64,000 nucleotides of DNA from Kiritimatiellia bacterium (lineage in GTDB: Bacteria; Verrucomicrobiota; Kiritimatiellia; RFP12; DVOR01): contig JAFYWN010000014.1 in the NCBI GenBank assembly GCA_017558005.1, forward strand, positions 17,902 to 81,901. Reading direction: 5' to 3'. The translations under genes were made by a program, and so were the position numbers. Positions 2,780-54,867 of this stretch are shown here, piece by piece (the first letter of the stretch is position 1; each line of letters starts with the position of its first letter). The notes under the pieces were generated by a model. That model worked only from the letters and a program-made list of their open reading frames with translations. It made no database searches and was not told the origin of the DNA.

Positions 2780-4066
2780 ATGACACATGATCAAATTTAC
2801 TCCCGCGCCTGCACACTCATCCCAGGCGGCGTCAATTCCCCTGTGCGTGCCTTTAATGCAGTTGGGGGCACGCCCATTTTCGTGACTTCGGGTAAGGGCG
2901 CAGAGATTACCCTCGCTGATGGACGCACGCTGATTGACTGTTGCTGTTCGTGGGGCGCCATGATCTTGGGCCACGCCTCGCCACTCGTGACAGAAGCGGT
3001 CACAAAGGCCGCCGCCACGGGCACGACCTTCGGCATCGCCACCCCTGGAGAAGTGGAGTTGGCCGAACGTCTCGTTGCCGCGAGCCCGCTCCTTGAAAAG
3101 GTGCGCTTAGTCAATTCTGGCACCGAAGCCGTGATGACCGCAGTGCGCTTGGCGCGCGGCGTGACGGGTCGTGACCTCATTTTGAAGTGTGAAGGATGCT
3201 ACCACGGCCATAGCGATAGCTTGCTTGTGAGCGCAGGAAGTGGCGTATTGACCGCAGGTGACGGCACGGAAGTCGCCAGCGCAGGCGTGCCCGCAATCAT
3301 TGCCCGCGACACCTTGGTCATCCCGTATAACGATCTCGCCGCCGCAGAACGTGCCTTTGCCGCACATGGTGCACGGATCGCCGCAGTCATTGTGGAACCC
3401 GTCGCTGGCAATATGGGCTGCGTCCCGCCCGTGGAGGGCTATTTGAAGGGATTAGAAACCCTCGCCCATCGCGCAGGCGCCTTGTTGATTTGCGATGAAG
3501 TCATCAATGCCTTCCGCTTCCGTTATGGCCTCTACAGTGATGCCGCAGGGATTGAACCCGACATCATCACGATGGGAAAGGTCATCGGTGGCGGCTTCCC
3601 CTTAGCTGCGATTGGCGCAAAAGCAGAGATTATGGATGCCCTCGCCCCGCACGGGAAGGTCTACCAAGCCGGCACCCTTTCGGGCAATCCCGTTGCAGTT
3701 GCCGCCGCTATTGCCGTATTGGATGAACTCCGCACCCGCCCGCCTTACGCCGAAATGGCCGCAAAGGTGACACGCATTACAGACGCATTTAATGCCGCAG
3801 CCACGCGCATTGGCGTCCCCATGCGCATCCAAAGCTACCAAACCGTCTTCACCCCCTTCGCGACCGACGCCCTCCCTGTGCGCAACCTCGCCGACGCCCA
3901 AGCCGCCGACACAGCCCTTTACGCCCGCTTCTTCCATGCCATGTTAGCCCGCGGTATTTACCTCGAACCCTCCGCCTTCGAGGTCAACTTCATCTCCGCC
4001 GCCCACACCGACACCCACGTCAATACCCTCATCTCCGCCATGGAAGACGCCCTCACCACCCTCTAA
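2780..4066 (+). CDS. hemL: glutamate-1-semialdehyde 2,1-aminomutase
   Basis: 428 aa with N-terminal PGGVNSPVRAF and class-III aminotransferase features, including the PLP-lysine region ITMGKVIGGG. Confidence 0.95.
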   Translation: MTHDQIYSRACTLIPGGVNSPVRAFNAVGGTPIFVTSGKGAEITLADGRTLIDCCCSWGAMILGHASPLVTEAVTKAAATGTTFGIATPGEVELAERLVAASPLLEKVRLVNSGTEAVMTAVRLARGVTGRDLILKCEGCYHGHSDSLLVSAGSGVLTAGDGTEVASAGVPAIIARDTLVIPYNDLAAAERAFAAHGARIAAVIVEPVAGNMGCVPPVEGYLKGLETLAHRAGALLICDEVINAFRFRYGLYSDAAGIEPDIITMGKVIGGGFPLAAIGAKAEIMDALAPHGKVYQAGTLSGNPVAVAAAIAVLDELRTRPPYAEMAAKVTRITDAFNAAATRIGVPMRIQSYQTVFTPFATDALPVRNLADAQAADTALYARFFHAMLARGIYLEPSAFEVNFISAAHTDTHVNTLISAMEDALTTL

Positions 4067-4069
4067 CCC

Positions 4070-4330
4070 CGCTCGCTGGGGGAGCGCAGCAGTGTGGCGG
4101 CCTACTAAACGCGACCCTGCTGGGGGAGCGGGGGGCGCAGCGGTGTGGCGGCCTACTAAGCGTGACCCTGCTGGAGGAGCGGGGGGCGCAGCGGTGTGGC
4201 GGCCTACTAAGCGTGACCCTGCTGGAGGAGCGGGGGCGTAGCGGTGTGGCGGCCTACTAAGCGTGAGATCGCTGGGGGAGCGGGGGGCGCAGCATCCCCG
4301 TTGGTTGGTTCCACTCTGGATAGCTGGTGA
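4070..4330. repeat. REP-A tandem array (about 4 units of about 51 bp) ending in a truncated REP-A terminal module
   Basis: The anchor GGCCTACTAA recurs at 4099, 4150, 4201 and 4251. The unit is GGCCTACTAAGCGTGACCCTGCTGGrGGAGCGGGGGGCGCAGCGGTGTGGC. The array ends with GCGCAGCATCCCCGTTGGTTGG. Confidence 0.85.
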
Positions 4331-4611
4331 CTGAAGTGGCCCTGTTCCATGTGTCGCATGTGCCCCATAAATGCCACGACCCATGTGGTCCCTTTCTTCG
4401 GAGGTGCCCCGTCATTTGTTAGGCGCGCGTAGCGCGCCCCTTCATCTCACGCTCGCGGCTCCATTCTTATCATTCACATTATCCATTATCGGAGCTAACC
4501 TTTCCATCACGCACACTTGCAGTGTACCAAACGTCCGCAAATTTGTCAAATCGTCATTTCAGAAAAGAATGAAATATCACAAAATGAGTCCAAAAATTGA
4601 GGCGGAAAACA

Positions 4612-4706
4612 AGCGAAATTGCGACTCAATTTCGCTGATATTGCCACCCCAATTTCGCTAGTATTGGGATCCAATTTCGCTAGTATTGACCCGAAATTTC
4701 TCCAGT
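4612..4706. repeat. iteron-like direct repeats CAATTTCGCT(G/A)(A/G)TATTG, period 22-23 bp, inside an AT-rich non-coding island
   Basis: Copies lie at 4627-4643, 4650-4666 and 4672-4688. An inverted half-site AGCGAAATTG at 4612-4621 pairs with 4627-4636. A degenerate CGAAATTTC lies at about 4692. Confidence 0.7.
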
Positions 4707-5054
4707 CCGCCCCCAAAAATAGGCAAATTGTTGATAACTTTTCCTCCCCCTTCGGTCCAAATTTTCGCAACGAAGCGACTGTAGGGGAGTTAATTTTGGC
4801 CCATTTTTGTGTTATCTACTTGTTCCTAAAAGACTTATGCATTTTGAGCGTCGTTTTGTTTTTTGCCCTCAAAAATGGGGGATTCCCGAAAAACTTTCAA
4901 AAAACTGCGTCGAAAAACTTGCATTGTTGATAACTTGTTGATAACTAAAAAAAGTTTTCAACAGGCGAAAAATCGTTAAAATTTTTAAAAAAGTGGACTT
5001 TTCGCGCAGTAGTTTTTTCGTAAAAAAGTGGCGTGTGTGAGCGCGGAGTAGGGG

Positions 5055-5200
5055 GATCGCGTGCGCAGTAGCGTGGCGGGCTACTAAGCGTGACCCTGCT
5101 GGGGGAGCGGGGGGCGCAGCATCCCCCGTTGGTTGGTAAGGCGCGCCGCTGCGCGCCCCATCACCTCCCCTCGGTGGCTCCATCCCTGCTGCTACCCACC
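5055..5200. repeat. REP-A terminal module (single copy)
   Basis: The sequence GCGTGGCGGGCTACTAAGCGTGACCCTGCTGGGGGAGCGGGGGGCGCAGCATCCCCCGTTGGTTGGTAAGGCGCGCC...CCATCACCTCCCCTCGGTGG is near-identical to 10060-10190 and 11440-11555. Confidence 0.8.
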
Positions 5201-5228
5201 CCCTTCACCTCCCCTCAGCGGCCCCCAT

Positions 5229-5258
5229 TTGCATTGCGCGCGCACTTTGTGTTATAAT
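5229..5258 (+). promoter_or_regulatory. sigma70-like promoter of coaD (TTGCAT-18-TATAAT)
   Basis: The -35 TTGCAT is at 5229-5234 and the -10 TATAAT at 5253-5258. The ATG at 5266 is 7 nt after the -10 hexamer with no SD, which suggests a leaderless transcript. Confidence 0.45.
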
Positions 5259-5265
5259 TATGCGC

Positions 5266-5817
5266 ATGAAAGAGACAACAGCGGTTTATCCAGGGACATT
5301 TGATCCCATGACCAAGGGACACTTCGACCTTATTCGTCGTAGTGCGGCACTCTTTGATCATCTGATTGTGGCGGTGGCGGGGATTTCTCCGAAGCCGACG
5401 CGCTTGTTTGGGATCGAAGAACGTGTTGCGATGGTGCGCGAGTGCTTGGCTGAAGGGGGTATTACGAATGCCACGGTAAAGCCGTTGGATTGTCTGTTGG
5501 TCGAATTCTGCCATCGGAATAACGTGCGTGCAGTGGTGCGCGGCCTGCGTGCTTACAGCGACTTTGAGTATGAATTCCAGATGGCGCTGACCAATCGTCA
5601 GTTGGCCCCGGATGTGGAGACGCTGTTCTTGATGCCGAATGAAGAGCACAGCTACATCACCGCCTCGACCGTGCGCGAAGTGGCACGTTATGGTGGTGAT
5701 ACGGCACATTTTGTGCCTGCGTGCGTGCAACGTCACCTGCAGGAGTATCTCGCCGCACACCCGGAACAACGCATCCAAGGAGCATCTGTTGGAAACACCG
5801 GCGCGTTTGACCGTTGA
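5266..5817 (+). CDS. coaD: phosphopantetheine adenylyltransferase
   Basis: MKETTAVYPGTFDPMTKGHFDLI matches the canonical CoaD N-terminus (AVYPGxFDPxTxGH). An in-frame ATG at 5260 is an alternative start. Confidence 0.9.
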   Translation: MKETTAVYPGTFDPMTKGHFDLIRRSAALFDHLIVAVAGISPKPTRLFGIEERVAMVRECLAEGGITNATVKPLDCLLVEFCHRNNVRAVVRGLRAYSDFEYEFQMALTNRQLAPDVETLFLMPNEEHSYITASTVREVARYGGDTAHFVPACVQRHLQEYLAAHPEQRIQGASVGNTGAFDR

Positions 5818-9832: not shown

Positions 9833-10192
9833 GAGATGAGGCCGAGGAGGGGAGGCGGGTGGCGCGGGACCGCGCCTTACCAACCAACGGGGCTGCGCCC
9901 CGCTCCCCGCATGAGTACGATGCCGAGTCTCGTATCACACTGTCTCACTCATGCGTACTGGGGGAGCGCCTTTTGTCACAGCGGCTCACTCATATGTGCT
10001 AGGGGGGCGGGGGGCGCGTGTGCAGTGGCGTGGCGGGCTACTAAGCGTGAGATCGCTGGGGGGCGCGTGCGCAGCGGTGTGGCGGCTTACTAAGTGTGAG
10101 ATCGCTGGTGGAGCGGGGGGCGCAGCATCCCCCGTTGGTTGGTAAGGCGCGCCTGCGCGCCCCATCACCTCCCCTCGGTGGCCCCATCCTTG
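9833..10192. repeat. REP-A composite (REPIN/MITE-like) element, copy 1
   Basis: The left module at 9833-9915 is the reverse complement of the right module at 10105-10192 (CCAACCAACGGGGCTGCGCCCCGCTCCCC versus GGAGCGGGGGGCGCAGCATCCCCCGTTGGTTGG). The core carries TTTTGTCACAGCGGCTCACTCAT and two CTACTAAG(C/T)GTGAGATCGCTGG units. Confidence 0.8.
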
Positions 10193-10262
10193 CCGCTACC
10201 CACCCACTTCGCCCTCAGGCCTCTCACCCCTCGCCCCCTCTGTCGTCGCTATTCTTTTAGGG

Positions 10263-10297: not shown

Positions 10298-11299
10298 ATG
10301 CGCTTCCCATTACTACAGCACGGTCGTCATTTTTACTTCTTCACATTTGTTGTAGAAGGGCGGCAAGCACTGCTTTCCCGACTTCAACGTGGGGAGAAAC
10401 GACCCCAGCTTTCAGAATTAGGGCGTCATATCCAAGCGTGCTGGAAAATGCTTCATAGTGTTGATTCGCACCTAACGGCCTTAGAGTCGGCGATTATGCC
10501 AGATCACGTCCATCTGCTATTGATGATAAATTCAGAAACGGAATTCCCCTTTAATCCGCTTATTTTCGCGCGTTGGTTCCAGAAGGTTACGGCGCATCCA
10601 CAGGAAGATGTCGATATTAAAACATGGATGGCGAACGCTGCTCCCCGTGGATGGGATCGATTTGACTCCGATTTAGAAGTGGCTCTATTAGAGCAGGGGC
10701 CTATGCCACGAGGAAAGATCCCATGGGCGAAGGAACTTTGGGTGAACGTCTCATTTGATGCCCGCCAACTCTCCGCTATTCGCCGTTACATACGGATGAA
10801 TCCTGTGCGCTACTTCTGGAAACACGACCACTCAGACCTTTTCAAATGCTGTCCTCGCCTCAAACATCCCGCATTAAATCCTGCGTTACCGTGGTCTGCG
10901 ATAGGCGATATCACAATACTTGCCTCTCCGTTTCTCTTTCTTGTGCGATTGACACGTAAGAAAACGATTCAAGCATTAGAGCCTGAGATAGAGGCTTATC
11001 TTGAACGAGCCCAACAAGGCGGCGTGCCCGTCTGTGGATTTATCTCACCAGCAGAGCGTGTATTTGAAGCTCGCTTAAAAGCCCTCCCCAATGTCCGCTG
11101 GATTAAGGCAGTGCCCTATGGCCTGCCAGAACGCTATGACCCATCAGTAGAAGATTCTCGCTGGATATCTGCACGGCAGCAGTTAATCCTAAGCTCATTT
11201 GATACCACCCAGTACCCGCCTTTTAAAATTACACGCGTAGGATGCCTACTTATGAATGAGCGCATCGAGCAGATGGTCGCCACCCTACGAGGGGAATAA
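10298..11299 (+). CDS. RAYT-like HUH/Y1 (IS200-like) transposase-fold protein with extra C-terminal domain
   Basis: It has the HUH motif MPDHVHLLL and the Y-motif RRYIRMNPVRY, as in REP-associated tyrosine transposases. REP-A elements flank it on both sides. The start is trimmed to ATG 10298 because the upstream part of the listed ORF translates the REP element. Confidence 0.7.
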   Translation: MRFPLLQHGRHFYFFTFVVEGRQALLSRLQRGEKRPQLSELGRHIQACWKMLHSVDSHLTALESAIMPDHVHLLLMINSETEFPFNPLIFARWFQKVTAHPQEDVDIKTWMANAAPRGWDRFDSDLEVALLEQGPMPRGKIPWAKELWVNVSFDARQLSAIRRYIRMNPVRYFWKHDHSDLFKCCPRLKHPALNPALPWSAIGDITILASPFLFLVRLTRKKTIQALEPEIEAYLERAQQGGVPVCGFISPAERVFEARLKALPNVRWIKAVPYGLPERYDPSVEDSRWISARQQLILSSFDTTQYPPFKITRVGCLLMNERIEQMVATLRGE

Positions 11300-11557
11300 C
11301 CAACCAACGGGGCTGTGCCCCGCTCCCCACCTTAGTGCGCTACCGATTCGCTTGTCACAGTATCTCACTCGTGTGTGCTGGGGGAGCGCCTTTTGTCACA
11401 GCGGCTCACTCATGTGTGCTAGGGGAGCGGGGAGCGCAGTAGCGTGGCGGCCTATTAAGTGTGAGATCGCTGGGGGAGCGGGGGGCGCAGCATCCCCCGT
11501 TGGTTGGTAAGGCGCGCCTGCGCGCCCCATCACCTCCCCTCGGCGGCCTCATCCCTG
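11297..11557. repeat. REP-A composite element, copy 2 (left module truncated at RAYT stop codon)
   Basis: It has the same core and right module as copy 1 (GGGGAGCGCCTTTTGTCACAGCGGCTCACTCATGTGTGCTAGG...GCGCAGCATCCCCCGTTGGTTGGTAAGGCGCGCCTGCGCGCCCCATCACCTCCCCTCGG). Confidence 0.8.
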
Positions 11558-11707
11558 CCGCTACCCACCCCCTTCTCACCCACTTACCCCCTCGCCACTC
11601 GCCACTGGTGCACAGCACCTTTGCCTTATTTAATAATATAAACACTTCAAATTCCCTTGTTTAGGGGGTGATTTTTGATAAAAATTAAAAACATCCCCCC
11701 TAAAAGC

Positions 11708-13503: not shown

Positions 13504-16500
13504 ATGAAACGATTCTTGAAAAGTTTTAGTCTTCTGCTCTGCAGCGGTCTCTTCGCCATGACCGGCTGGGCCGCAGAACCTACGGCAGATTGGTCTGCAT
13601 CCTTTAATGGGGATACGACCTGTTCGGGTTTATTTAGTGGGTGGAGTGGCAATGGTGACATCCCTGCGGCGTCTTATGTAACAACACCGAATGGTTCAGG
13701 TTTTATTGCAGGTACTTATGTGCCGTGGTGTGATAACTCGGGCATTACAGTTGCAAATTCGTTTGCATTTGCAGTTTATGCTGATTTGTCCACGGTCGCC
13801 CCAAATTCAACGATTATGGGCGTGGGTGGCGCAGCGTGGAATGGGGGCAGTGGCTTTACGTTGGCAAAAACGGCTAAGGATGAAGTTGCCGTAGTTCGTT
13901 ATGGCGCAACGGATACTGTTATCGCTAGATTGAAGAGTGACACCATTAAGACCTCCTCTTTCATGCTTTATACCGTGTCAATTGTTCAGAATGATGATTC
14001 TACAGTTGTTACGATTACGGCGGGCTCAGATTTAGTGACGAGCGAAGATACCACCAAGTACACGCCCACTGGGAATGGTTTGCAGGTCGGTGCATGTTAC
14101 GGAGATACTGCGTATGTTCAGATTGATGGTGTGAACACTACGAAAGCTGCGAATGCTATCATTGACGAAGTGCGTGCGTATAGCAGCTCTTTGACGATTG
14201 AGGAAATAACACAGTTATTGGAAGTTTTCCCCACCGTAAAACGTCCAGAAGTGATTGCAATCAATTTTGCAAATAATGCTGCTGATTTAGGGTCTAGCGG
14301 ACTCCCAACGGATGCAATTGGGTTTGAAAAGGTCGTGGAGGGTGTTACCTATGGCGGAAAGGTCGTCCCTGCGTTTTGGACAAAGACAACGGGTGGTGTG
14401 AATAATGATGGGCTTGATGTTGCAAGTACGATTGAGCGTCAGTATCGTCTCAAGTGGAGCTCAAATGCGAATACGTATCAGTCTGGAAGTACTGGGACTC
14501 TGACGGAAAAGTTAACCTATGGTTATTTGGATAATGGGGATAGTACGCAGAATCACATTGAATTGAGCGGTCTTCCGATTACGGGTTATGATGTTGCGGT
14601 GATTTTGGGTGGTGATGGCCCGAATAGTGAGAACGCACAAAATAATAAGTTCTCGCCTGTTAAGGTGAATGGCATTGATTACACCTATGATGCCGATAAT
14701 AATCTTATTCAGGGAACGACGGTCTGGGGTGTTCGCTGCAATGCAAATGCGTTGACAGAAGGGACAAATGTTATTTTTGTTCCCAATCAAATAGCTCCTA
14801 CGTTATTAATTGACACCTATTACAAAAATGAAAATGGGAATGCGGGTCGTGGTACGATTGCTGCGATTCAGGTTTTTGTTCACACGGGTAAAGAGTCTCC
14901 AGTGTTTCCTCCGTTAGGAGAGGCAACATCTTATTGGAATTTTGAGAATTCGATAGTTGACGCGAATAAAGGTGTAACGAGCTGGACGGGTGATAATGAT
15001 GCCACCAATGCGTATGTTGACTCCTATCGCAAGTCTGAACGTGGCATTGTGTACAAGGGCGCTCAAATGAGCGGTTCGCTTCATCCCTATTTGAATGGTT
15101 ATGCATGGTCATCTGAGTTTACGATTATGGCCTATGTGAATGTGGCGAAGTGTCCAGACAATGGTGTACTTGTCTCTTCTGGTGGTGCTACGAAATTGCG
15201 AAAGGTGAATAGCACAACGATTCGCTTCGGTGGTCCTAATACGTATGTGGATGCGGAATGTGCTGATTTAGCTGTTGGTTACCATTTAATTATCGCTACA
15301 TTCGGTAATGCTGGTTTGACACTTCAAATTGACAATGGTCAGGTCGCGACGAACGCGAGCAAGTCCACGATTGCAAATGGTATTCAGATTGGTGCAGAAT
15401 GGGGTGGTGGTACACATTCGTATAACAACGACGGCGGTGCAGTCATTGATGACCTTGCGATTTGGAACAAAGTGCTCACGTCTGATGAGATGGATTTATT
15501 AAAGGCCTGTTATCCTGCAGCCTATCTTCCATTGAGTGTGGCCGCAGATACGGATGCTTCGGGTGCTCTTTCTTGGAGTGAAATTACCGCAGTGGTAGGC
15601 AATCGTACTACTTGGAATGTCTCTGGCGAAGTGACGATTTCGCTTGATGCAGATATTGATCCTGCTTTAACGGCCTTGACGTTGATTCCTGCCAATGCCT
15701 CGGGTGATAAGCTCACAGTGACAGGCGCAGGCTCGTTGTATGGCGATACCTTTGCTTTGACCACGGATATCCTTGTGGATATTACGAATCAGAAGAATAA
15801 TCCCACAATTACCCTCTCTGGTGCAGGGAATGTGACGATTCGTAAGGGTAATGGGTCGACTGCCGGCGGTATCGCTCCTGTGGCGAATAATTACACGGGT
15901 ACCTTCACCGTGGATGATGGTCAGCAGATTACACGTATGGGTGGCGATTTAACAATCCCGTTCACCGTGGGTACGAATGGTGCGAAGTTGCACTCGAATG
16001 ATGGCAATTGGACGGTCTCTTCCAAGATTTCTGGCTCTGGCACGTTGACGATTGCTTCTCCAAGTCGTTGGATTTCTGTGACCAATAATACAAACGACTT
16101 CACGGGTAATGTGGTCGTTGAATCGGGCACCCTCTATGTGGGTAACAAGGGCAGTGAAAATAGCGGCTCTGATGCGCAATTGGGTGATGAGAATAGCATT
16201 TATACGGTGAAGTCGGGGGCTACGTTCTACACGCACCTCGGTGGTAATGATAAGATCTTTGCACCCAATATCACGCTTGAAGATGGCGCCACTTTTGGTA
16301 ACCGCGATGGTCACGTTACTTACAATGGTGATATTACGATTAATGGCAATGCCACCTACAACTTCTATTGGAACAAGCAGAATACGTTCTCTGGCGTGGT
16401 TTCGGGTACAGGAACATTAATGATTAATGGCCCTGATAATGAAGATGGTACTTGCGAAATTCGTTTGACCAATGCGGCAAATACCTTCACGGGTACCTAT

Positions 16501-19500
16501 AAACTCGCAGGTAAAAACAACAATCGCAAGATTAAGCTTGTCGCTTGTGCAACAACAGGCGCGGCTTCATACAATTTGACAAATGCGTATTCCATCTTGG
16601 CTTTCTCTGGCGATGTCACGGCGAATACGTTAATAGGTTCGGCAGGTTCGGTGGAATCGAATGCCTCTGGTACGGCGCGTACGGTGACCTTGACGGGTAA
16701 CTCTGATGTGCGCTCGTTGGCGGTCTCGAATGATATTACTTTCGCGGTTACTGCAGGCGAAACGTATATCACCTCAACCACGAAGGCGACTGTGACAGAT
16801 GGCGCTACGGTGAAGGTTGTCCTTACCGCAGATCAGAAGCTTTCGGGTTTGACGTTGGAAAATGTGACTGTTAATGATGGTGGTACGGTTGTCTTCTTGG
16901 ATATTGACGGCACCACTGAATTGAAGTCGTCCGATTCAAATGCTTATGAAGCGGCTCAGACTTCTACCTATACAGTGACGGTTGAAGGTGGTTCTTGGAA
17001 TAAGGACCCTGCAAATGGTGATGCAATCACGATTGCCTTCGGTGATATTACAAACCGTACGCTTGATGAATCGATTTTGCCTCAAGGTGTGACGCATTTG
17101 GCTGGTTTGACGGCAACGGGTGCGAATGCTTCGATCACGGCGGCTTTTGCAGCAATCGCTGATGCGGTGATTATTGAAGATACTTTATCGATTGTGGGTA
17201 CGGAAGAAGAAACCACGGTCGCAGGCGTTATCTCTGGTGACGGTCAGGTGAAGATTGCCGCAGGTAAGGTGAAGTTTACAAATACGAACACTTACATCGG
17301 TGGTACAGATATTGCTACAAATGCAACGCTCACGATGGGGAATGCCAATGCGATTGGCACAACGGGTAATATCACTGGTGCTGGTACGCTTAAGTTCAGC
17401 GGCTTTGTTCCTGCGAACCTGTCGAATCTCACGGTAGCAGAAGGCGGCTGGACAGGTACCTTCTACATGATGAATCGTCCTTCATCGGGTACCTTCCCCG
17501 TGAATGAATGGGGTAATGCGAATTCGACGATTTGCCTTGAAAACTGCTCGGGTTATCTTACGCCTGCAGGGGGGGCAACAATTACCTCCAACTTCCGAGT
17601 GGAAGGCGATGGTTGGCGTTCGCAAAATGGCAATGGTAATGCGCAATTTACCTTTACGGGCGCATTGTCTGGCTCGGGTAAGCTCGAAGTCGCAACAGCC
17701 ACTCCGGAAGCAGGTAATTTCTATAAGTTTACGGGCGATGTCTCTAAATTCACAGGTTATGTGAATGTAACCAATAACCATCGCGTTGTCTTTGGTGATG
17801 CAGATTCTCAGGGTAATGGTAAGATTACCATTGCTAAGAATGTGACCATCGCTGCGCAAAAGACTTGGTCTGCCGTGAATGGTATTGCCATTATGGAAGG
17901 TGCTACGTTGACGGTGAATGGCGCGATTACTGGCGCTATCGCAAATGCTGGCACTTTGATTTATGGCGTTGATACCACCGTATCCAACACTATTTCTGGC
18001 GCAGGTGCGATTCAGGTGGCCGCGGCAAAGACAGTTGATTTGTCTGCCGCAACCTTGACGAACTTCGCAGGTACTTACGCAGTGGGCGAAGGTGCAACCT
18101 TGAAGTTGCCGCTTACTGCAACAGCTAATAAGGAAATCGCTCTTGGCACAGATGCGAAGTTGCTCGTTGTATTGAATGACGAACAAAAGGGCGCAGAGCA
18201 GTCGGTTACTGTGATAGGTGGTTCTGTACAGTTCGTTGATGCCAACGGTAATGTTTTGTGTAATGGCGCTTCTTACTCCATGCCGACTTACATAGTTGGC
18301 GAAGGCTGGACAGGCGCTAACTTGACGGCGAATGCGAATATTACCATTGACTTCGCCGAAACAACAGATCAGACGGTTGATTTAACGGCAATCCTTGGTA
18401 GCGTAACCACGCTCTCGAAACTCACGGTGAAGGGTACGAATGGCGGAACGATTACGAACACGAATTCGACAGTGACGGCTTGCCCGATTGTGGAGGTTTT
18501 GGCTGGCGGTCGCACCAATGTGCCTGAGGCGTTGACGAGCCTCGCCACAACGGTGACAGGTCCCACGGCTGAAGGTTCCTTGCTCTATGTGACGGGTGAA
18601 ACCACTGCGACAACCTCACGTTACCCTTACACGGGCAATCGTCACTTCGAAACGATTAAGTTTACAGACTCTCAATCTGTTGGCGGTGACATTGATGGTT
18701 ACACTGTTGCCAAAGGCGAAACGATTGAATTCTTGCACAATGGTGGCGTTCGCTATCAGACGAGCCTTGTGGTCGATGGTGGTACGATTCGCACAACGCA
18801 AAACACGCACGTTTGGTTAATTGGCGCAGAAAATGCAGTCTTCACATTGAAGGCTGGTGCTGCAGACTTCTCTTCTATTTCCGTGGATAACGACAAGGAT
18901 GGTCTTTTGATTGGTTACATGGACAGTACGCACACCTTTGATATTCAGGGTGGTACGTTGGATGCTTCCAATACGTCCATTGTGGGTTATCAGCCAGGTT
19001 CTCACTATCGTCAGTCGGGTGGTCTCGTGAAGACGAAGGGCTTCCGTCAAAATGGATCGAACTTTACGGAAATGACGCTCACGGGCGGTACGATTGAATT
19101 GGGCTCGGGTGGCCTTCCGAATCTCGGCATGGACAATGCAACCTTCTCGGGCGCGACAATTCATGCTGTGGCCAATAACACGGTTGCTGAAGCTTTGAAC
19201 ATGACGGCTGCGTCGACCTTGTCTGCAGCAGCAGATACAACGATGACGGTCACTTCCACCTTTACGGGTGCCGCAACCTTGTCTATCGCTGGTGCTGGTA
19301 CGGTTGACCTCTCGGGTGCAACGATTCCGAACACGATTGCTCTTAACGTCGCGGCTGGCGCAACGGCAGTAGTTGCGCCAGATCAGGTTTCCACCTTTGC
19401 AAAGGTGACCGTGCCTGAAGGCGCAACCTTGAAGGTTAAGTTAACGGTAGACTGCCTCATTTCGGGTCGTTTGAACTGCACGCTTGGAGCAGAGTCCACA

Positions 19501-22473
19501 CTTGATGGTGCTATTGTTTTGGATGGCATTGAAGGTGAAACGACAACTTTCACCGATGGTGTGCTCTCTGTCACCTTTGCCGCAAATCCGACCCTTACCG
19601 GTAATGCTTGGTGGTGGGACTACGAATTCAATGGTGATGTCCGCAGCACTGGTAGTGATACTGCTCCTTTGGTGCTTGAAGGTGATGGTACCTCTTATGT
19701 GACCGTAGATGGTGACAATAAAGCGCTTTACTTCCAAAAGACGCCTTATCGTGATAATGGTAATGATGTTAAGGCACGTTTCGCAGAGGTTGACACCTTT
19801 ACTGCTGTGATGTATTGCCAGCCAGGTAATCACAACAATGTGCCGCTTGTTGGCTTTGGTTCTACAACGCAGAATGATAAGGTTGCTGTTGTGCTTGCCA
19901 CGGGTGCTGTTGCCGCGGATGGCGAGATGGCGATTATGTTGGTGAAGGGCGACAACCATGTGGTTACCCCTCTTGCAGACAATCTCGTTGTCCCTAATGC
20001 GACGAAGGCATATCACCTCTACGCCTTTACCTTTGATGCTCAGGCAGATAAGACGGTGATCTCCGTGTATGTGGATGGTAAGCTGAAGAAGACCACAACG
20101 GTGAATGAACACTTCCGTGTTTCAAATGGTTTCCAGATTGGATCGATCCATGGTGGTGTAATGACAAACCAGACCGGCTTGTCAAAGTATCCCGACAGTG
20201 GTGACTCGGGTACGATTGACTTCCTCCGTGTAACGAAGGGCCTCCTCTCTGCTGATGCAATGCGTGCTTTGGCAGAAGCTTATCCCTATCATTCTGAGAA
20301 TGGTACGGCGACACGTACGGTTGCTGAAGCTACCGTCAACTGGGTCGCTGATGATACCTGGTCACAGGCAATGCCAAATGCTGACGCCGTTCAACAAGCT
20401 GCTCCGAATAATGGTACAAATGTGACCTTAACAGCAAATGTTGCGACGGAAGTGACGGTTAACCTTACTGAAGCTGTTACTTACGAAACGGTGACGGTGG
20501 TAGGTGATGATGCAGTGACCTTCAAGAAGGGTGAGGCTGCTACGTTTAAAGCTGGCGACATCACCATTGGAACGGATGTGACGATTGAGTATGGTGCGAT
20601 TGACGTGGACACCTTGATTGTGAATGGTGGTAAGACCTTGACCTTTGACTTCACAGGTTATGACTTTAACTCCATCTATGCAAGCAAGACGCTTCCCTTG
20701 ACGGGCCTTGCCACCTTGGGTGAAAATGCTGATGTGGAAGTTGCATTGCCTACATTGCCGGCTTACCTCACTGCTGAATGTGTCTTTGATGCAAACAAGA
20801 GTGAATACGCCTTGGCAATCACGGTCACGGGCACGCTCGCTGCTACGATTGAAAACAATGCCATTACCTGGAAGGTTGGCAACACGGTTGTTACGCCTCC
20901 GGCAGACTTGACAGCAGTGGAATCCATCACGATGACGGTGGTGGGTGACAACTCCGTGGCGTTGACAGAAGACATGACGTTGGCATCTGTTGTCCTTACG
21001 GGTGAAGGTGGCTCGGTGACGTTTGAAAGTGGCAAACTCACGGTGAACAACACCTTGACGATGAATAATGTCAATGTGATGGCAACGCCTGAAACGCTCA
21101 TTGCCGCAGTGGTGACGGGTACTGCTGGAACTGAAACCTTCACGATGCATTCGCAGGCATCTTATAGCCATGAGCAGGCATTTGCAATGCGCTTTGAACG
21201 TTGCGCGCTCACAAAGACAGGTTCGGGTACGGTCCCGATTGCTGTAAATGGCGTTGAATTGGATACGGTCAATGTGACGCTTAAGAATGGTGCGTTGCAG
21301 TTGGCAAGTCGCGGTGGTGATCCTCAAATTAAGGACACGACCTTCACCTATGTGGATGCGAACGAAGATGGTGTCGCTGACGGTGAATTGACCAACTATG
21401 GTTGGATTCACTCGACAACCACAACAACCTTCATTGTTCCCGAAGGTGTGACAGGTCGTGCCGTGGTGGGTAGCTGCCTGACCAATACGGGCGCTGTAGT
21501 GAAGCAGGGTGCTGGTACGTTGGTGCTCGGTATCATGAAGACGAATAACGCAAATCCGTACACGGGCGCAACGACGGTTGAAGCGGGTATGTTGGCGTAT
21601 CACATTGTGAATAACTCTGCAAATCCGTTCGTTATGAGCAGCGTCATCACCGTGGAGGCTGGTGCAGCAATCAAGGGTGTTGAAAACTGCACGTTCGCTT
21701 CGCTCTCCTTTGAAGCTGGTGCTATCGTTGATGCGACGGCTGCCCCTGTGGTGGCCACCGCTGTGATGCTTCCCACGGGAGACGGCGCTAAGGTTGTCCT
21801 CAAGAAGAATGCTTCTGGTGACGTCCTTACGTATACGGGTGATGTTCCTAACATGAACCTCTTCACGACGGCGACGACGCTTGAAAATGCAATGCTCGGC
21901 GTGAAGGTCAATGAAGGTGTCGTGACCCTCGTCTTGACGCAGGTGTCCGTGCCTGAAGTGGTTATCCCGGATGATGCTACGGAAGAAGTACGTGCTGAAC
22001 TCGTAAAGCAACAGGCTGAAGCTGAAGTGGCCGCCCAGGTTGTCGCTGACGCATTGGCCGCAAGCACGGACGAGGAAACACGTACTGCAAATGTCTCCGC
22101 GATTGAAAATCCTGGTGCTGCATCGATTATTGAGAACGCAGATGTTGAGTTGACTCAGAATGAGGGTGAGGAAACTTACACAGCGAAGTTCACCTACAAC
22201 TTTGGTGTCAGCGCCCTCGATGTGGTGAATATCGAAGGCCAGTTGCATGTGGTTATTATGGCTAAATTGGATGAGCAGAATAACCATAGGTTTGCTAATG
22301 GTGTTACGGTGACGGTGACGGATGGTAATAAGGAAATTGCCGAAGCCGTGGCTGTGACCGACATGACAGGCACTACGACAACGCAGTCTCCGGCGGGTAA
22401 TACGCGTTACTTCCGCTTCCCGCTCCCGACGGATCTTGGCACACATTCGTACAAGGTGCGCGCGACAAAGTAA
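13504..22473 (+). CDS. giant secreted repeat protein 1 (2,989 aa): signal peptide, LamG/ConA-like lectin domains, PATR-like beta-strand repeats, conserved C-terminal domain
   Basis: The signal peptide is MKRFLKSFSLLLCSGLFAMTGWA. LamG-type tail motifs are IDEVRAYSSSLTIEEI, IDDLAIWNKVLTSDEM and IDFLRVTKGLLSADAM. PATR-like motifs are TNTNTYIGGTDIATNATLTMGN and NANPYTGATTVEAGMLAY. It is a paralogue of the downstream giant gene. Confidence 0.9.
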   Translation: MKRFLKSFSLLLCSGLFAMTGWAAEPTADWSASFNGDTTCSGLFSGWSGNGDIPAASYVTTPNGSGFIAGTYVPWCDNSGITVANSFAFAVYADLSTVAPNSTIMGVGGAAWNGGSGFTLAKTAKDEVAVVRYGATDTVIARLKSDTIKTSSFMLYTVSIVQNDDSTVVTITAGSDLVTSEDTTKYTPTGNGLQVGACYGDTAYVQIDGVNTTKAANAIIDEVRAYSSSLTIEEITQLLEVFPTVKRPEVIAINFANNAADLGSSGLPTDAIGFEKVVEGVTYGGKVVPAFWTKTTGGVNNDGLDVASTIERQYRLKWSSNANTYQSGSTGTLTEKLTYGYLDNGDSTQNHIELSGLPITGYDVAVILGGDGPNSENAQNNKFSPVKVNGIDYTYDADNNLIQGTTVWGVRCNANALTEGTNVIFVPNQIAPTLLIDTYYKNENGNAGRGTIAAIQVFVHTGKESPVFPPLGEATSYWNFENSIVDANKGVTSWTGDNDATNAYVDSYRKSERGIVYKGAQMSGSLHPYLNGYAWSSEFTIMAYVNVAKCPDNGVLVSSGGATKLRKVNSTTIRFGGPNTYVDAECADLAVGYHLIIATFGNAGLTLQIDNGQVATNASKSTIANGIQIGAEWGGGTHSYNNDGGAVIDDLAIWNKVLTSDEMDLLKACYPAAYLPLSVAADTDASGALSWSEITAVVGNRTTWNVSGEVTISLDADIDPALTALTLIPANASGDKLTVTGAGSLYGDTFALTTDILVDITNQKNNPTITLSGAGNVTIRKGNGSTAGGIAPVANNYTGTFTVDDGQQITRMGGDLTIPFTVGTNGAKLHSNDGNWTVSSKISGSGTLTIASPSRWISVTNNTNDFTGNVVVESGTLYVGNKGSENSGSDAQLGDENSIYTVKSGATFYTHLGGNDKIFAPNITLEDGATFGNRDGHVTYNGDITINGNATYNFYWNKQNTFSGVVSGTGTLMINGPDNEDGTCEIRLTNAANTFTGTYKLAGKNNNRKIKLVACATTGAASYNLTNAYSILAFSGDVTANTLIGSAGSVESNASGTARTVTLTGNSDVRSLAVSNDITFAVTAGETYITSTTKATVTDGATVKVVLTADQKLSGLTLENVTVNDGGTVVFLDIDGTTELKSSDSNAYEAAQTSTYTVTVEGGSWNKDPANGDAITIAFGDITNRTLDESILPQGVTHLAGLTATGANASITAAFAAIADAVIIEDTLSIVGTEEETTVAGVISGDGQVKIAAGKVKFTNTNTYIGGTDIATNATLTMGNANAIGTTGNITGAGTLKFSGFVPANLSNLTVAEGGWTGTFYMMNRPSSGTFPVNEWGNANSTICLENCSGYLTPAGGATITSNFRVEGDGWRSQNGNGNAQFTFTGALSGSGKLEVATATPEAGNFYKFTGDVSKFTGYVNVTNNHRVVFGDADSQGNGKITIAKNVTIAAQKTWSAVNGIAIMEGATLTVNGAITGAIANAGTLIYGVDTTVSNTISGAGAIQVAAAKTVDLSAATLTNFAGTYAVGEGATLKLPLTATANKEIALGTDAKLLVVLNDEQKGAEQSVTVIGGSVQFVDANGNVLCNGASYSMPTYIVGEGWTGANLTANANITIDFAETTDQTVDLTAILGSVTTLSKLTVKGTNGGTITNTNSTVTACPIVEVLAGGRTNVPEALTSLATTVTGPTAEGSLLYVTGETTATTSRYPYTGNRHFETIKFTDSQSVGGDIDGYTVAKGETIEFLHNGGVRYQTSLVVDGGTIRTTQNTHVWLIGAENAVFTLKAGAADFSSISVDNDKDGLLIGYMDSTHTFDIQGGTLDASNTSIVGYQPGSHYRQSGGLVKTKGFRQNGSNFTEMTLTGGTIELGSGGLPNLGMDNATFSGATIHAVANNTVAEALNMTAASTLSAAADTTMTVTSTFTGAATLSIAGAGTVDLSGATIPNTIALNVAAGATAVVAPDQVSTFAKVTVPEGATLKVKLTVDCLISGRLNCTLGAESTLDGAIVLDGIEGETTTFTDGVLSVTFAANPTLTGNAWWWDYEFNGDVRSTGSDTAPLVLEGDGTSYVTVDGDNKALYFQKTPYRDNGNDVKARFAEVDTFTAVMYCQPGNHNNVPLVGFGSTTQNDKVAVVLATGAVAADGEMAIMLVKGDNHVVTPLADNLVVPNATKAYHLYAFTFDAQADKTVISVYVDGKLKKTTTVNEHFRVSNGFQIGSIHGGVMTNQTGLSKYPDSGDSGTIDFLRVTKGLLSADAMRALAEAYPYHSENGTATRTVAEATVNWVADDTWSQAMPNADAVQQAAPNNGTNVTLTANVATEVTVNLTEAVTYETVTVVGDDAVTFKKGEAATFKAGDITIGTDVTIEYGAIDVDTLIVNGGKTLTFDFTGYDFNSIYASKTLPLTGLATLGENADVEVALPTLPAYLTAECVFDANKSEYALAITVTGTLAATIENNAITWKVGNTVVTPPADLTAVESITMTVVGDNSVALTEDMTLASVVLTGEGGSVTFESGKLTVNNTLTMNNVNVMATPETLIAAVVTGTAGTETFTMHSQASYSHEQAFAMRFERCALTKTGSGTVPIAVNGVELDTVNVTLKNGALQLASRGGDPQIKDTTFTYVDANEDGVADGELTNYGWIHSTTTTTFIVPEGVTGRAVVGSCLTNTGAVVKQGAGTLVLGIMKTNNANPYTGATTVEAGMLAYHIVNNSANPFVMSSVITVEAGAAIKGVENCTFASLSFEAGAIVDATAAPVVATAVMLPTGDGAKVVLKKNASGDVLTYTGDVPNMNLFTTATTLENAMLGVKVNEGVVTLVLTQVSVPEVVIPDDATEEVRAELVKQQAEAEVAAQVVADALAASTDEETRTANVSAIENPGAASIIENADVELTQNEGEETYTAKFTYNFGVSALDVVNIEGQLHVVIMAKLDEQNNHRFANGVTVTVTDGNKEIAEAVAVTDMTGTTTTQSPAGNTRYFRFPLPTDLGTHSYKVRATK

Positions 22474-22496
22474 TTGATTGCGTGTAATCTAAAACT

Positions 22497-22530
22497 CAAG
22501 CGGTGGCAGCGATGCCATCGCTTCCTTTTT
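22497..22530 (+). terminator. rho-independent terminator after giant gene 1
   Basis: Hairpin AAGCGGTGGCA-gcga-TGCCATCGCTT followed by CCTTTTTT. Confidence 0.7.
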
Positions 22531-22680
22531 TACTAGGCTGGGGGGAGTGCTAGCGCCGTAGGCGCGGTCGCTCCGCTCCCGCGTGGTTCTGAGTTCTAGG
22601 GGCGGAGTTTTGCGGTTTCGCACGCTTCGTAGATGTGTTGGCTTTTCGTGGGCGTAGCCCTAGTGTTACGAAAAGAGCAA

Positions 22681-22817
22681 CGCATCTCCTAGTGTTCATT
22701 GTGTTAAAACCGCACTAGCATCGCATTCGCTTCGCAGAAGCACGAGCTAGCATCCACGGGGCCGCAGGCCATCGCGCCGTGGTGCGGTCGTGCGCCTCGC
22801 GTAGTTCGCGGAAAAAT
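22681..22817. repeat. about 137 nt conserved upstream element, copy B
   Basis: Near-identical to 13200-13337. In this copy it lies between an inverted pair GGTTCTGAGTTCTAGG (22585-22600) and CCCAGAACTCAGAAC (about 22946-22962). Confidence 0.85.
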
Positions 22818-22988
22818 CCTCCCTGGCAGTGCTTGCTATTCGCAGACGCTCGCTAGACGGAGCACGGATACGTGCCCGTGCGGAGCAGCGAGCAAGACTG
22901 TGCGACTTGTGAAAATCCACACTGGCAGTCCTGCGCCGCAGGCGCCCCCTGGGAACCCAGAACTCAGAACTCAAGTGAGCGCCCCCCC

Positions 22989-23090: not shown

Positions 23091-26000
23091 ATGAGCAAGT
23101 TCTTCAAATCACTCCTCCTGCTGCTGTCAGCAGGCCTCTTCGTAGTCACAGGATGGGCAGTGACGTTAATTAATCCCAATCCCACGGCGAGCTTTACAGA
23201 CTTTAGCACGATTCCAGCGGGTACTACCACTGAAGCAAAAACGCTTACCAATAATGGTGTAACGTTAACGCTTCCTGTTGGGATTACGAAGAATGACGAT
23301 GGCTCAATCTATTTGAATAACAAATCTGGCGCCAAGGTAACTTTGTCTGCAGAAACTCAGACAATCGCAGTGGTGTTAGATTTGGTAGAAGCTCCAGTGG
23401 CTCCCACGAATCCTGGAAATACTTCTTATACCTTGCTTGTTAATTTTGATTCAGGGACAGACATCGCGGCTGCTTACACAGGGTCTGGTATTCGTGGTGC
23501 TTGGGGTGGGAGTCTTAATGGACGAACTGCTGAAAAGGCATGGACCGCTGAAGCAACGAAGGTATTAGCAGCGACATCTAGTACGGGTGGTACGACGATT
23601 CGTGTGAAAGATAATACTGATGCAAATAAGTGGAATGAAGGTGGCTTAAAAGCACGCGGTAATCGATATCAAGTGATTGACATTGGTCCGACATTAACGC
23701 TTAAAGGCATCTACGTATACGATACGTACCAGGACGATATCCCTTCCTTCACGGAAGTGTCTGCTTATGAACGTACAATTGAAGGTGGCGCAAATTGGGC
23801 TGCGACTGATGCGTGGGCTACGGGTGTGACTAATCCTGAGGCGGGCACGTCGGCAATGTTGAATGTGACAGGTGATGCGACCTTGATGATGAACGAAGCA
23901 TCGAATGCGCTCAATTACATTGAGATTAAAGGTTCCGGTTCGTTGACCATTACGGGCTCAAATACATTGACTGCCGCTTCAACGATTGTTAAGGCAAATA
24001 CAATTGTAGAAACGAGTGCTTCGCTTGGTGCGGTAACGTTGGAAAATGATGCAACCTTGACGGTGAAGTCTTTGAACGCATTTACTTCGATTGCAGGTGA
24101 GGGTACATTGGCGCTTGATCTTGGTGATGAAGCGGATGTTGAATATACGGGTAATTTCCCCACGACGGTAAAACTTTCGTTGCTTTCGGGTTCTTTAACC
24201 TATAAGCATAATAGTGCACATCGTGCGATTAAGGCCTTGAATATCGCAGAAGAGGCAACCTTCGCGGATGTGGCTGATTACAAGTATAACTTGACGATTA
24301 ATGATAAGTTCTCGGGCGCAGGTACTTATCTTGTGAAAGTCCCCACGAATTCGTCGCAGACCGATGGCTGGCGTTATCTCTTTGTGAATGGCGATGCAGC
24401 AGAATTCACGGGTAACGTGAAACTTCAGATTCAACATAACGCAAATCAGAATCAAAATGGTGGTGCTCCTTACCGCACGGGCGTGCGTTTGACGGGTACG
24501 GCCTTTGGTGGTACGGTGACGGCTGAAGCCACTGGTGACGGTGTGACGGATGCTGATTTGGCTTACGCTCACCTCGATATTGATGAATCGCTTACAATGA
24601 CGAAGGCGCAGTCCTTTGCAGGTAAGATTGATGTCGCCTCGGGTAAGACGTTGACGGCCGCTAATGGTGTCACGCTCACGAATGCTGGTAAGCTTGAAGG
24701 TACAGGCACAATTGCTGCACCTTTGAATTATTCTTCTACGGCGGAAACTACTTTTGGAGGCGTGATTTCTGGAGAAGGGACGTTAACTGTTTCCAAGGGT
24801 GTGCTTACGTTGACGGGCGCTAATACTTATGATGGTGCTACAACCGTGGCGTTTGGCGCAAAATTGGTTGCAAATACAACTGGTGCTGCCACATGGGACT
24901 ATAATGATCATGATGCAAATATTGTGGTCAATGGAGAGGTCGAACTGACCTCCACGAACGAATGCTATCGTGGTTTTGAAGGTGCAGGTAAAATCACGGT
25001 TAAGGGCTCGGTGATTTTGGGTAATACGGGTGACTCTGGTTATCTTTCGGGCTTGTGTGCATTTACTGGTACGTTAGTGGTTGAGGCAAATAATACCCTC
25101 ACCTTGAAGACTTGGGGCCAGCAGCATAAAACCACGTTGGCTGCGCTTGAAGCATATGGCAACATTGAAATGAGTCGTAATGGTGGTACTCCAAGCACTG
25201 TAGATATTGAGACTGCACAATTGAAGGGTGTGGGCATTATCAATGTGTCATCTTTGAAGTTGACAGATAATGCAACGATTGATGTGACGGCTGGTGCAGT
25301 TACTGCAACGACGACTGCGACCCTGCCTAATGCATTTACGGTGAAGATTTCTGCAGAGCAGGATGCTATTGGCGTGGTCACTGTGATGACATCGCCCAAT
25401 GTTGTGATTACGGATAAGATCGCAACGGTTTTGATTGGTAAAGATGAAGCCGAATACACCTTGCATGCTGATGCAGCAACGGTTTGGGTGGAAAAGGCAG
25501 GAGTTGAACTGCTTGAAACGGTTGAAGTTACTTTCACTGAAGGTGGTACGCTGGTACTTTCTGATGCTTTGGATGGTAAGGCGCTTGCTCCAAGTGCAAC
25601 GCTCGAGATTAACTTTGGCAACAAGGGCGAGAATGAGCCAAATCCTGGCATCTTTGAGTTTGATTGTGATGCTGCATTCGCTCAAATCACAATCACTGGT
25701 ACGAATGGTGGTACGATTACGAAGACTGGCACGGTTACGGTAACGGCATCCTCTACGACCATTGATGCTGATACAACGGTGAATGCAGGTGCGGCCAACC
25801 TTGGCACGGTGACAATCAACGCTGAAAAGACCTTGACGGTGAAGGAAGATTGGACGAATGTCGCTACGAATGTGCCCACGACTGCAACCAACCTTGGTAA
25901 GATTCGTTTTGAAGGCGGTTCTGCTGAAACACCGATTGTCTTCTCCATGGGTGATGCGGCAAACGGCAATCCTGGTGCGCTCGTGATGGCGCCTGGCGCG

Positions 26001-54530: not shown

Positions 54531-54600
54531 TTCCCTCGGCGCTTCTCTGCCACAGGTCTTTTGGCGTTCAGCCCACGCTCCGATTCAACGCTATTGAAAT

Positions 54601-54730
54601 GCTCAGAGAATTTCACTGAAATTCAAAAGTATTTCACTGAAACACTAAATGAATTTGACTGAAATACTCAGAGAATTTCACTGAAATTTAAAAGTATTTG
54701 ACTGAAATTCTAAAAGTATTTGAGTGAAAT
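54601..54730. repeat. array of six phased palindromes TTT(C/G)A(C/G)TGAAA (two about 65 bp higher-order repeats)
   Basis: Palindrome starts are at 54611, 54632, 54654, 54676, 54697 and 54719, with spacings of 21, 22, 22, 21 and 22 bp. The array lies about 140 bp upstream of the CDF transporter start. Confidence 0.85.
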
Positions 54731-54867
54731 ACTGGACTTGTTTTGATAGGGTGTGGTTTTTTGTGTGGTTTGATTTTGGAGAAAAGTGGCCTTGTGTGAA
54801 CGTCAACATTTCCACATTTCTACATTTAATAAAAACGGTTTCTATGCTATACTTTTCGTAACCGCAG

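Follow-up and report, generated by a model that had tools for sequence, protein, structure and literature searches.

We analyzed a 64,000-nucleotide stretch of DNA (hereafter, the window) from the uncultured gut Kiritimatiellia bacterium Candidatus Spyradenecus (assembly GCA_017558005.1, contig JAFYWN010000014.1, positions 17,902 to 81,901), in which an AT-rich, non-coding island at 4380-5045 lies between hemL and coaD. GC content is 0.32-0.46 across 4400-5000 compared to 0.55-0.72 in the flanks, and no credible open reading frame (ORF) is found in the island. The sequence TTGTTGATAACT occurs at 4728-4739, 4924-4935, and 4935-4946 (three matches with at most one mismatch in the 64-kb window vs 0.24 expected by chance), while CAATTTCGCTRRTATTG occurs at 4627-4643, 4650-4666, and 4672-4688, with spacings of 23 and 22 bp (three matches vs 0.06 expected) and with inverted partial copies just upstream at 4594-4632. 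An A/T tract, AAAAATCGTTAAAATTTTTAAAAAAG, is present at 4968-4993, and REP-A elements with 51-bp units bracket the island at 4072-4299 and 5051-5126. A preliminary description had reported all of these features, including the three box-like 12-mers and the three iterons with an inverted half-site, and had read them together as the layout of a replication origin. Each of these features is where it was reported; nonetheless, we found that the island is one copy of a dispersed non-coding repeat and not the replication origin of the chromosome. A pair of abutting 9-mers that had been counted among the origin motifs, TCATTCACA and TTATCCATT (4470-4487, plus strand), is also present but falls outside the repeat, to the left of its boundary at ~4497, where columns are unconserved (~0.40 across 4470-4489), and the 9-mers are not of the box type found at the origin of this lineage.

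The genome to which the window belongs (G000) comprises 2.05 Mb in 37 contigs and is 90% complete. When we searched it by BLAST with the 666 bases of the island, 41 places matched at 72-81% identity, and a profile search with nhmmer returned 46 intervals that add up to 23.9 kb, or 1.2% of the genome. Of these intervals, 38 reach at least one end of the repeat, and the others are cut by contig ends. A copy is found no more than 1.5 kb from 16 of the 74 contig ends, so that 46 is probably an undercount. The repeat unit is ~550 bp long and corresponds to window positions ~4497-5030, with conservation among 39 copies rising at ~4500 and dropping after ~5020, and its mean GC content is 39% compared to 52% for the genome. 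The left boundary is sharp, at ..CTCTTCTCTCcACgcACACTaaaAGTGTAgCAAAA, while the right boundary is fuzzy, with about half of the copies continuing into AAGRGATAR 9-mers, whose number varies, and from there into the hairpin TGTGGGGGCGACGCCGCCCCCACA; this hairpin is found 24 times in the genome, and in 18 of the 24 cases it lies within 250 bp of the right end of an element. The AAGRGATAR 9-mers adjoin the right side of ~20 copies and runs of a CCGAACY heptamer the left side of ~10 (for example, C33:28019-28112 and C5:18559-18640), and the hairpin also stands at window position 54494 without any element. The copies fall into two subfamilies: subfamily A, with 14 full copies at a median identity of 73.6%, and the younger subfamily B, with 20 full copies at 85.8%. 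The window copy (4497-5030, plus strand) belongs to subfamily A and spans nhmmer profile positions 9-562 of 565.

At the left end, 37 of the 38 copies that retain this end carry TTGAC[T/A]-N17-TGnTACACT, with a spacer of invariably 17 nt and an extended -10. We predict that this is a near-invariant sigma-70-type promoter, P_left, directed out of the left end. In the window copy it reads TTGACA-N17-TG-n-TACACT on the minus strand at 4521-4549 (10 of 12 matches in a promoter scan, plus the extended -10) and points at the 3' end of hemL. A palindrome, ACACT-N3-AGTGT (4513-4525), lies ~16 nt inside the left boundary, overlaps the -10, and is conserved in the alignment of left ends. Next come degenerate and inverted operator-like repeats with GCGAAAT half-sites (4570-4626; inverted-repeat pairs I1, I2, and I5), and in most copies the profile matches itself on the reverse strand over this operator-like region (model positions 66-193). 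These are followed by the three 17-bp "iterons" (4627-4688, plus strand, at 23- and 22-bp spacing), each of which is an imperfect palindrome, CAATTTC-GCT-GATATTG, that occurs in its perfect form, CAATTTCGCTGAAATTG, in the relative G005. The sequence AATTTCGCTGATATTG is present 64 times in the genome, every one inside the repeats. The "iterons" thus read as a 22-bp-phased array of putative palindromic operators between the promoter and the boxes. Separately, a close operator variant, ATTTCACTGAAAT, forms arrays of six or seven tandem 21-22-bp units that stand alone without DnaA boxes, at window positions 54599-54739 (C14:72500-72640) upstream of a cation-diffusion-facilitator gene and at C32:66440-66600 upstream of clpB.

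The remainder of the repeat holds the DnaA boxes and several conserved blocks. Box 1, AGTTATCAACAA, is on the minus strand at 4728-4739, with a conservation of 0.99 among copies. A block at 4760-4797 (plus strand, conservation 0.87-0.99) consists of AATTTTCGCA and a short palindrome, CCGCTGTAGCGG, which is degenerate in the window copy (CGACTGTAGGGG, three mismatches); this block is also kept in a divergent repeat family of G005. A second block, AAAACTGCGTCGAAAAA (4901-4917, plus strand), has a conservation of 0.97 and is intact in the window copy. Boxes 2 and 3 form a tandem double box with 11-bp spacing on the minus strand at 4924-4946 (conservation 0.98-0.99) and are followed by an invariant 29-mer at 4947-4975 (plus strand, conservation 0.94-1.00), inside which lies an inverted weak box, TTTTCAACA (4955-4963). 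A weak promoter-like site directed toward coaD, TTTTCA-N16-TAAAAT (4955-4982, plus strand, 9 of 12 matches in the promoter scan), is not a family feature, with a comparable site in only 8 of 35 copies.

A strong conserved promoter, together with ORFs of 80-171 codons in some copies, might point to a gene for a structured non-coding RNA or a small protein within the repeat. However, the promoter points out of the element, and a stop-free stretch of at least 100 amino acids is found in only 7 of 34 copies, so that a conserved ORF was not found. Positions 3800-5500 gave no Rfam match at a permissive threshold (E up to 1), and across 46 copies and both strands we detected no covariation beyond shuffled controls: the consensus fold pairs ~40 of 546 columns with 0-2 compensatory pairs. 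The ACACT-N3-AGTGT palindrome is among the few pairs found by RNAalifold, with no compensatory change. We therefore consider that the unit works at the level of DNA, since there is neither an RNA fold nor a conserved reading frame, and regard an encoded RNA or protein as highly improbable.

The boxes themselves are concentrated in the repeats. The 12-mer AGTTATCAACAA is found 124 times in the genome, with 115 occurrences inside repeats and the other nine on a single contig, C10, in clusters at 14583-14696, 18585-18841, and 23107-23208. Likewise, 120 of the 149 occurrences of TTATCAACA are within repeats, and 30 of 34 full copies have three TTATCAACA boxes. The canonical box TTATCCACA, on the other hand, is found 18 times, scattered across the genome and never in repeats, and canonical-type boxes are nowhere enriched. 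Outside the repeats, the 11-bp-spaced double box is confined to three clusters around dnaN, dnaA, and gidA, with identical double boxes at C10:14584, 18586, and 18831, beside dnaN. When we examined 59 loci from other phyla, outside the genus, that contain the 22-base double box, we found a dnaA or dnaN homologue adjoining it in 34 (within the few kb fetched). Because the double box sits beside dnaA or dnaN in other phyla, these are genuine DnaA boxes, as the preliminary description had proposed from the similarity of the core to a DnaA box.

The same contig carries the features expected of the origin that had been placed between hemL and coaD. On C10, dnaN lies at 16923-18041 and dnaA at 21508-22965, with gidA/mnmG divergent from dnaA, and the GC skew goes from about -0.07 to +0.10 at ~14.5-15 kb. 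The real oriC is thus probably at C10 14500-23300, around dnaN, dnaA, and gidA and at the GC-skew switch. At the hemL-coaD locus, by comparison, there is no switch (-0.005 in the 10 kb on the left side, +0.015 in the 10 kb on the right), and the skew is positive throughout the contig that holds the window. Among the 27 copies with 10 kb on both sides, a negative-to-positive change occurs at only one, next to an island where the skew is opposite. With its genuine DnaA boxes, phased repeats, and AT-rich DNA, hemL-coaD could pass for an oriC or an integrated oriV, but there are at least 45 equivalent loci, the skew at the locus is flat while the switch lies with dnaA, dnaN, and gidA on C10, and both the sister species and one strain lack the repeat at this site. 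An origin here is therefore extremely unlikely; with the skew switch elsewhere and equivalent motif clusters at other loci, we observe the very outcome that the preliminary description had itself named as speaking against its proposal.

We made several further observations on the origin region and its boxes. DnaA-box clusters on C10 extend over 14583-14811, 18496-18843, and 23098-23209, and three extra ORFs lie between dnaN and dnaA, one that matches HTH_3 weakly and scores below the cut-off for that family, one SLOG/YspA-like, and one uncharacterized. In the relative G005, locus L141 (G005:C148, 400-1240) has four perfect palindromic operators (CAATTTCGCTGAAATTG and variants, at 22-23-bp spacing) directly upstream of dnaN and ~200 bp from a cluster of DnaA-box variants, such that operator and boxes co-occur at the presumptive origin. 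In the relatives G042, G010, G004, and G012, no TTATCNACA box is present in the 1.5 kb upstream of dnaN. Six IMG/VR viral contigs (L016-L021) hold the exact 22-base double box alone, and one of them has seven TTATCAACA boxes in 10 kb.

Iteron origins, such as those of pSC101, pPS10, F, and R6K, combine DnaA boxes, AT-rich DNA, direct repeats, inverted partial repeats, and a promoter. The repeat shares the order of parts and the 22-bp phasing of these theta replicons, and in this respect the origin-like layout noted earlier holds: the element looks like the origin of an iteron plasmid together with the rep promoter, even though the locus is not a replication origin. We thus considered whether the copies are left over from the origin and rep promoter of an iteron-type plasmid or phage and now serve as binding or handcuffing sites for the Rep protein of an unbinned replicon. 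On the minus strand, the succession of boxes, AT-rich DNA, three direct 22-bp repeats, inverted partials, and promoter agrees with the pSC101/pPS10-type order, and plasmids are often missed in bins such as this 90% complete genome. On the other hand, no gene consistently follows the promoter, no rep gene lies beside any copy, and no Rep_3 initiator (Pfam Rep3_N) was found in G000, G023, or G005. The whole element matches none of 72,556 plasmids and 50,697 phages, and the double-iteron pattern was not found in viral contigs. Moreover, the units are palindromic, as is expected of dimeric operators and unlike monomer-type iterons, similar operator arrays stand alone upstream of clpB and the cation-efflux gene, and the repeat is present in dozens of chromosomal copies, which is also unlike iteron replicons. 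Altogether, a plasmid or phage remnant appears unlikely.

We next consider where the copies lie, using longest-ORF calls of at least 130 codons rather than an annotation. Among the 29 copies with both neighbors called, 19 are between divergent genes, nine between tandem genes, and one between convergent genes, and a gene start is faced by the left end in 27 of 35 copies and by the right end in 27 of 36. The promoter-side neighbors are unrelated housekeeping genes, encoding EF-P, LepA, GrpE, Gmk (guanylate kinase), Icd (isocitrate dehydrogenase), DnaB, RF1, and others, with no replication initiator and no recurring regulator among them. The window copy, in which the left promoter is directed toward the 3' end of a gene, is in a minority of contexts.

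The orientation of the copies follows replication. We compared each copy with the local GC skew, taken over 20 kb on each side with the element excluded, and found that orientation matches skew polarity in 33 of 41 copies (p=1e-4). Polarity is strongest in subfamily B (20 of 21, p=2e-5) and in unclassified partial copies (7 of 7), while subfamily A shows 9 of 14; orientation with replication in the younger subfamily is a new feature. In the prevailing orientation, P_left points the way the fork moves; on the right arm, the strand that carries the boxes has the same reading as at the origin, and on the other arm this arrangement is mirrored. As a by-product of gene orientation, the polarity would require a strong gene bias, and we rejected this explanation since only 53% of genes are on the leading strand. 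A control family of 56 REP copies was also unbiased (24 of 54), and together with the gene figure this indicates that the orientation bias is specific to the repeat. In the sister species G023, 9 of 12 copies agree, although this agreement is weak and the sample is not independent, and the skew around the window copy is weak, such that its apparent exception to the polarity is uncertain. The polarity fits either fork-coupled insertion or selection against strong promoters that fire head-on to the fork. That the younger subfamily is the polar one leans toward fork-coupled insertion, and insertion sequences are documented to have family-specific orientation biases that arise when they insert (PMC3971601).

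Polarity raises another possibility, namely, that the copies are polar auxiliary sites of DnaA-dependent helicase loading, used for secondary initiation or fork restart, with a fork direction equal to that of the main fork of the arm. Every copy has an origin-grade double box with AT-rich flanks, the orientation as judged by skew is mirror-symmetric about the origin, and co-directional firing would leave GC skew intact, so that the uniform skew of multi-copy contigs is compatible with such sites. However, subfamily A lacks polarity, and by eye, in the window copy and the consensus, we saw no repeated trinucleotide motif on either side of the double box and recognized neither a DnaA-trio-like motif nor an unwinding element. 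Dispersed sites of chromosomal initiation are not known from bacteria, which also counts against this explanation, and we consider it very unlikely. The box side of the element usually has a head-on gene. It is likewise quite unlikely, in our estimate, that repeats on both arms restart collapsed forks (for example, after a head-on gene at the box side) or launch extra forks only in the normal direction of replication; if they did, initiation or restart would be distributed over the chromosome in a manner unknown in bacteria.

We also examined copies at the same position in two species. Seven positional pairs between G000 and G023 were compared, with conserved columns defined from other paralogues. 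Across the seven pairs, mismatches number 87 of 1956 in conserved columns and 281 of 1333 in variable columns, and in the two closest orthologous pairs they amount to 1.8% in conserved columns compared to 8-10% in variable ones. The DnaA boxes are unchanged between positional orthologues (0 of 329 positions, including box 1 and 0 of 161 in the double box), as is the 29-mer after the double box (0 of 203) and the promoter -35 (0 of 35), while the promoter -10 has 1 change in 63 and the short palindrome 2 in 84. The operators, on the other hand, have 48 changes in 357 positions (13.4%), which is close to the 13.6% in the rest of the element. Initiator sites and promoter are thus kept in place, while the "iterons" drift at the background rate. 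Copy replacement may exaggerate this contrast, but the two near-identical pairs speak for its being real.

The family has a narrow distribution. We found the double box in 2 of 28 genomes of the genus, G000 (41 matches) and the sister species G023 (32 matches), in which flanks are 95-98% identical to those in G000. The relative G005 has a divergent family: one locus keeps the conserved middle block with boxes and operator set replaced, while other G005 arrays keep the operator, and this points to a modular exchange of parts. At G005 loci L011, L013, and L015, the middle block (GAAGCCGCTGTAG..) and an A/T-rich right end are present, while unrelated sequence takes the place of the DnaA boxes and GC-rich palindromes (ACGAGGGCCTCG) that of the operator array. 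Positional counterparts in G000 and G023 are 82-95% identical, and two pairs are of different subfamilies, which means that copies are sometimes replaced. Flanks of the G023 copies L031, L052, and L065 map to different G000 contigs or 18 kb apart (C23/C15, C35/C9, and C37), which suggests rearrangements between the two genomes with breakpoints at repeats.

At hemL-coaD, the G023 spacer is 371 bp and has no repeat. A metagenome scan with CoaD gave only relatives of at most 65% identity, while an exact-protein look-up gave two strain variants with identical CoaD, L226 and L227. L226 has an empty hemL-coaD spacer of 221 bp with a single REP composite, while the L227 contig starts inside the right end of the repeat, indicating that the site is filled. 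The converse case, a G023 copy without a counterpart in G000, is found at C12:29142-29988. The repeat family is thus still polymorphic between strains. In the window, the left flank (4072-4464, plus strand) consists of the REP-A 51-bp tandem array (4072-4299) followed by other REP-type modules (direct-repeat families D1, D2, D5, and D6), of which positions 4286-4309 and 4421-4464 recur on the right side. The right flank (5031-5227, plus strand) holds a REP-A unit (5051-5126) and the second ~95-bp REP composite (5113-5183), which repeats the left composite in direct orientation at a period of ~828 bp. The insert is thus flanked by direct copies of this composite, which fits recombination through the REPs. 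Among the 31 copies for which both flanks are long enough, just four have flanking direct repeats, which consist of REP sequences; comparison of filled with empty sites gives no clean junctions, as these are blurred by REP turnover.

Several of these observations would be expected of a purely selfish, non-autonomous mobile element whose spread is fork-coupled, with boxes, operators, and termini serving its own mobilization or maintenance, the promoter as a by-product, and no function for the organism. Host-factor sites do occur in some transposon ends. The patchy distribution, limited to two sister species and the divergent G005 family, favors such an element, as do the presence/absence differences between species and strains, the two subfamilies of different age (73.6% vs 85.8% median identity), and the 16 contig ends that lie close to a copy. 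Polarity that is strong in the younger subfamily (20 of 21) and lost in the older one (9 of 14) is also in its favor, given the insertion-set bias of insertion sequences (PMC3971601), and an ORF in the window is distantly similar to a REP-associated tyrosine transposase (NCBIfam E=4e-6). On the other hand, we found no terminal inverted repeats joining the ends, in the window copy or in the alignment of ends, and no target duplication at the repeat ends, and flanking direct repeats are confined to the four copies above. A profile search of the genome gave truncated remnants only and no longer, transposase-bearing copy, and the transposase-like ORF is below its family cut-off and flanked by REPs rather than by the repeat. 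Boxes, 29-mer, and promoter remain unchanged at fixed sites while the rest drifts, which is unexpected for a decaying insert, and the copies prefer divergent promoter regions, not the 3' ends of genes where insertion would be least harmful. We regard a purely selfish element as the strongest alternative, though a rather doubtful one.

We lean instead, with somewhat better than even confidence, toward a reading of the copies as selected DnaA-binding and promoter modules that jointly act as a distributed sink or sensor of the initiator. The repeats hold ~80% of the TTATCAACA boxes of the genome and 93% of the extended 12-mer, and through these they would buffer or sense free DnaA, much like datA, DARS, or DnaA-box clusters in other bacteria, at sites spread over the chromosome. 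A further contribution of each copy would be a strong promoter directed outward, co-directional with the fork, before a housekeeping gene. The family may have spread, through mobility or recombination, not long before the two sister species split, and the window copy would be a later gain, inserted among REP elements. Beside this copy, coaD keeps its own promoter intact: the predicted TTGCAT-N18-TATAAT (5229-5258, plus strand, read from sequence) is outside the repeat, and the stretch 5206-5290 is 91.8% conserved in the sister species, which lacks the repeat here, and is also kept in the empty-site strain L226.

A number of findings weigh against a distributed sink or sensor. The distance from promoter to boxes is 180-380 bp, and the anatomy does not imply direct control of P_left by DnaA. 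Between orthologues, the operators, which are the most eye-catching part, are under no more constraint than the background. Of the 27 other species of the genus, 25 lack the family, which is therefore not a long-standing essential device. At hemL-coaD, where coaD has its own promoter and P_left is antisense toward hemL, there is no obvious benefit. Finally, several positional "orthologues" differ by 15-18% overall, in addition to the two pairs of different subfamilies, and copy replacement rather than purifying selection could be behind part of the conservation in place.

DnaA-box clusters outside the origin are known in other bacteria, including datA, DARS1, and DARS2 in Escherichia coli (PMC4585315) and the DnaA-box clusters of Bacillus subtilis (PMC2533591). 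Like these loci, the repeat has three or four boxes of the high-affinity type, is intergenic and away from oriC, and accounts for a large share of the DnaA sites. The known clusters, however, are single-copy loci at conserved map positions and not repeats, whereas here there are 46 or more copies of a 550-bp repeat that is strain-polymorphic, carries a promoter and operators, and is oriented with replication. With two tandem boxes ahead of an inverted one, the repeat is also reminiscent of the DARS core, which we mention as a lead only.

Promoter-bearing intergenic repeats that are reused as "mobile" promoters include the Correia elements and ERIC (PMC3575422). The repeat resembles these in being dispersed and non-coding, with a conserved outward promoter upstream of unrelated genes, but it is much larger, lacks terminal inverted repeats, and has initiator sites, separate operators, and a replication-related orientation. 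Replication-linked orientation is, on the other hand, a property of insertion sequences of the IS200/IS605 family and their gene-less derivatives (PMC3971601 and PMC5027513). With these the repeat shares a family-specific replication orientation bias, the lack of terminal inverted repeats and target duplications, and small palindromes near the ends. It differs in that no transposase partner was identified for it, its ends are ill-defined (9-mer and 7-mer runs), and its internal blocks are the best conserved.

The general view is that bacteria keep DnaA in check through a small number of loci at fixed positions, among them datA, DARS, and DnaA-box clusters. In this small genome, almost all strong DnaA sites sit in a young, strain-variable repeat family. 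Should DnaA occupy the copies in vivo, its buffering could be gained, amplified, and lost through the spread of a repeat, and dozens of housekeeping promoter regions would have been rewired in one sweep. The orientation rule provides a concrete handle on how the family spreads or on what is selected. For this lineage, our findings also mean that origin-like motif clusters are repeats, while the real origin is beside dnaN and dnaA.

Two minor features complete the picture. A solo left-end remnant at C12:83936-83990, consisting of the leader and TGnTACACT without a -35, lies directly upstream of a 720-codon gene. The transposase-like ORF of the window (10298-11299; C14:28199-29200), which we came across through one of several weak tblastn matches to an approximate IS200 transposase query, encodes 333 residues with an HUH-like motif, MPDHVHLLL. 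It matches the NCBIfam family REP_Tyr_transpos (REP-associated tyrosine transposase) with E=4e-6, but its score of 26.8 bits falls short of the cut-off of 80, and there is no Pfam or PDB sequence match. Copies of the same REP that lies beside the island flank it (10058-10204 and 11434-11569), with the repeat on neither side, and it may be the enzyme that spreads the REP families of this genome.

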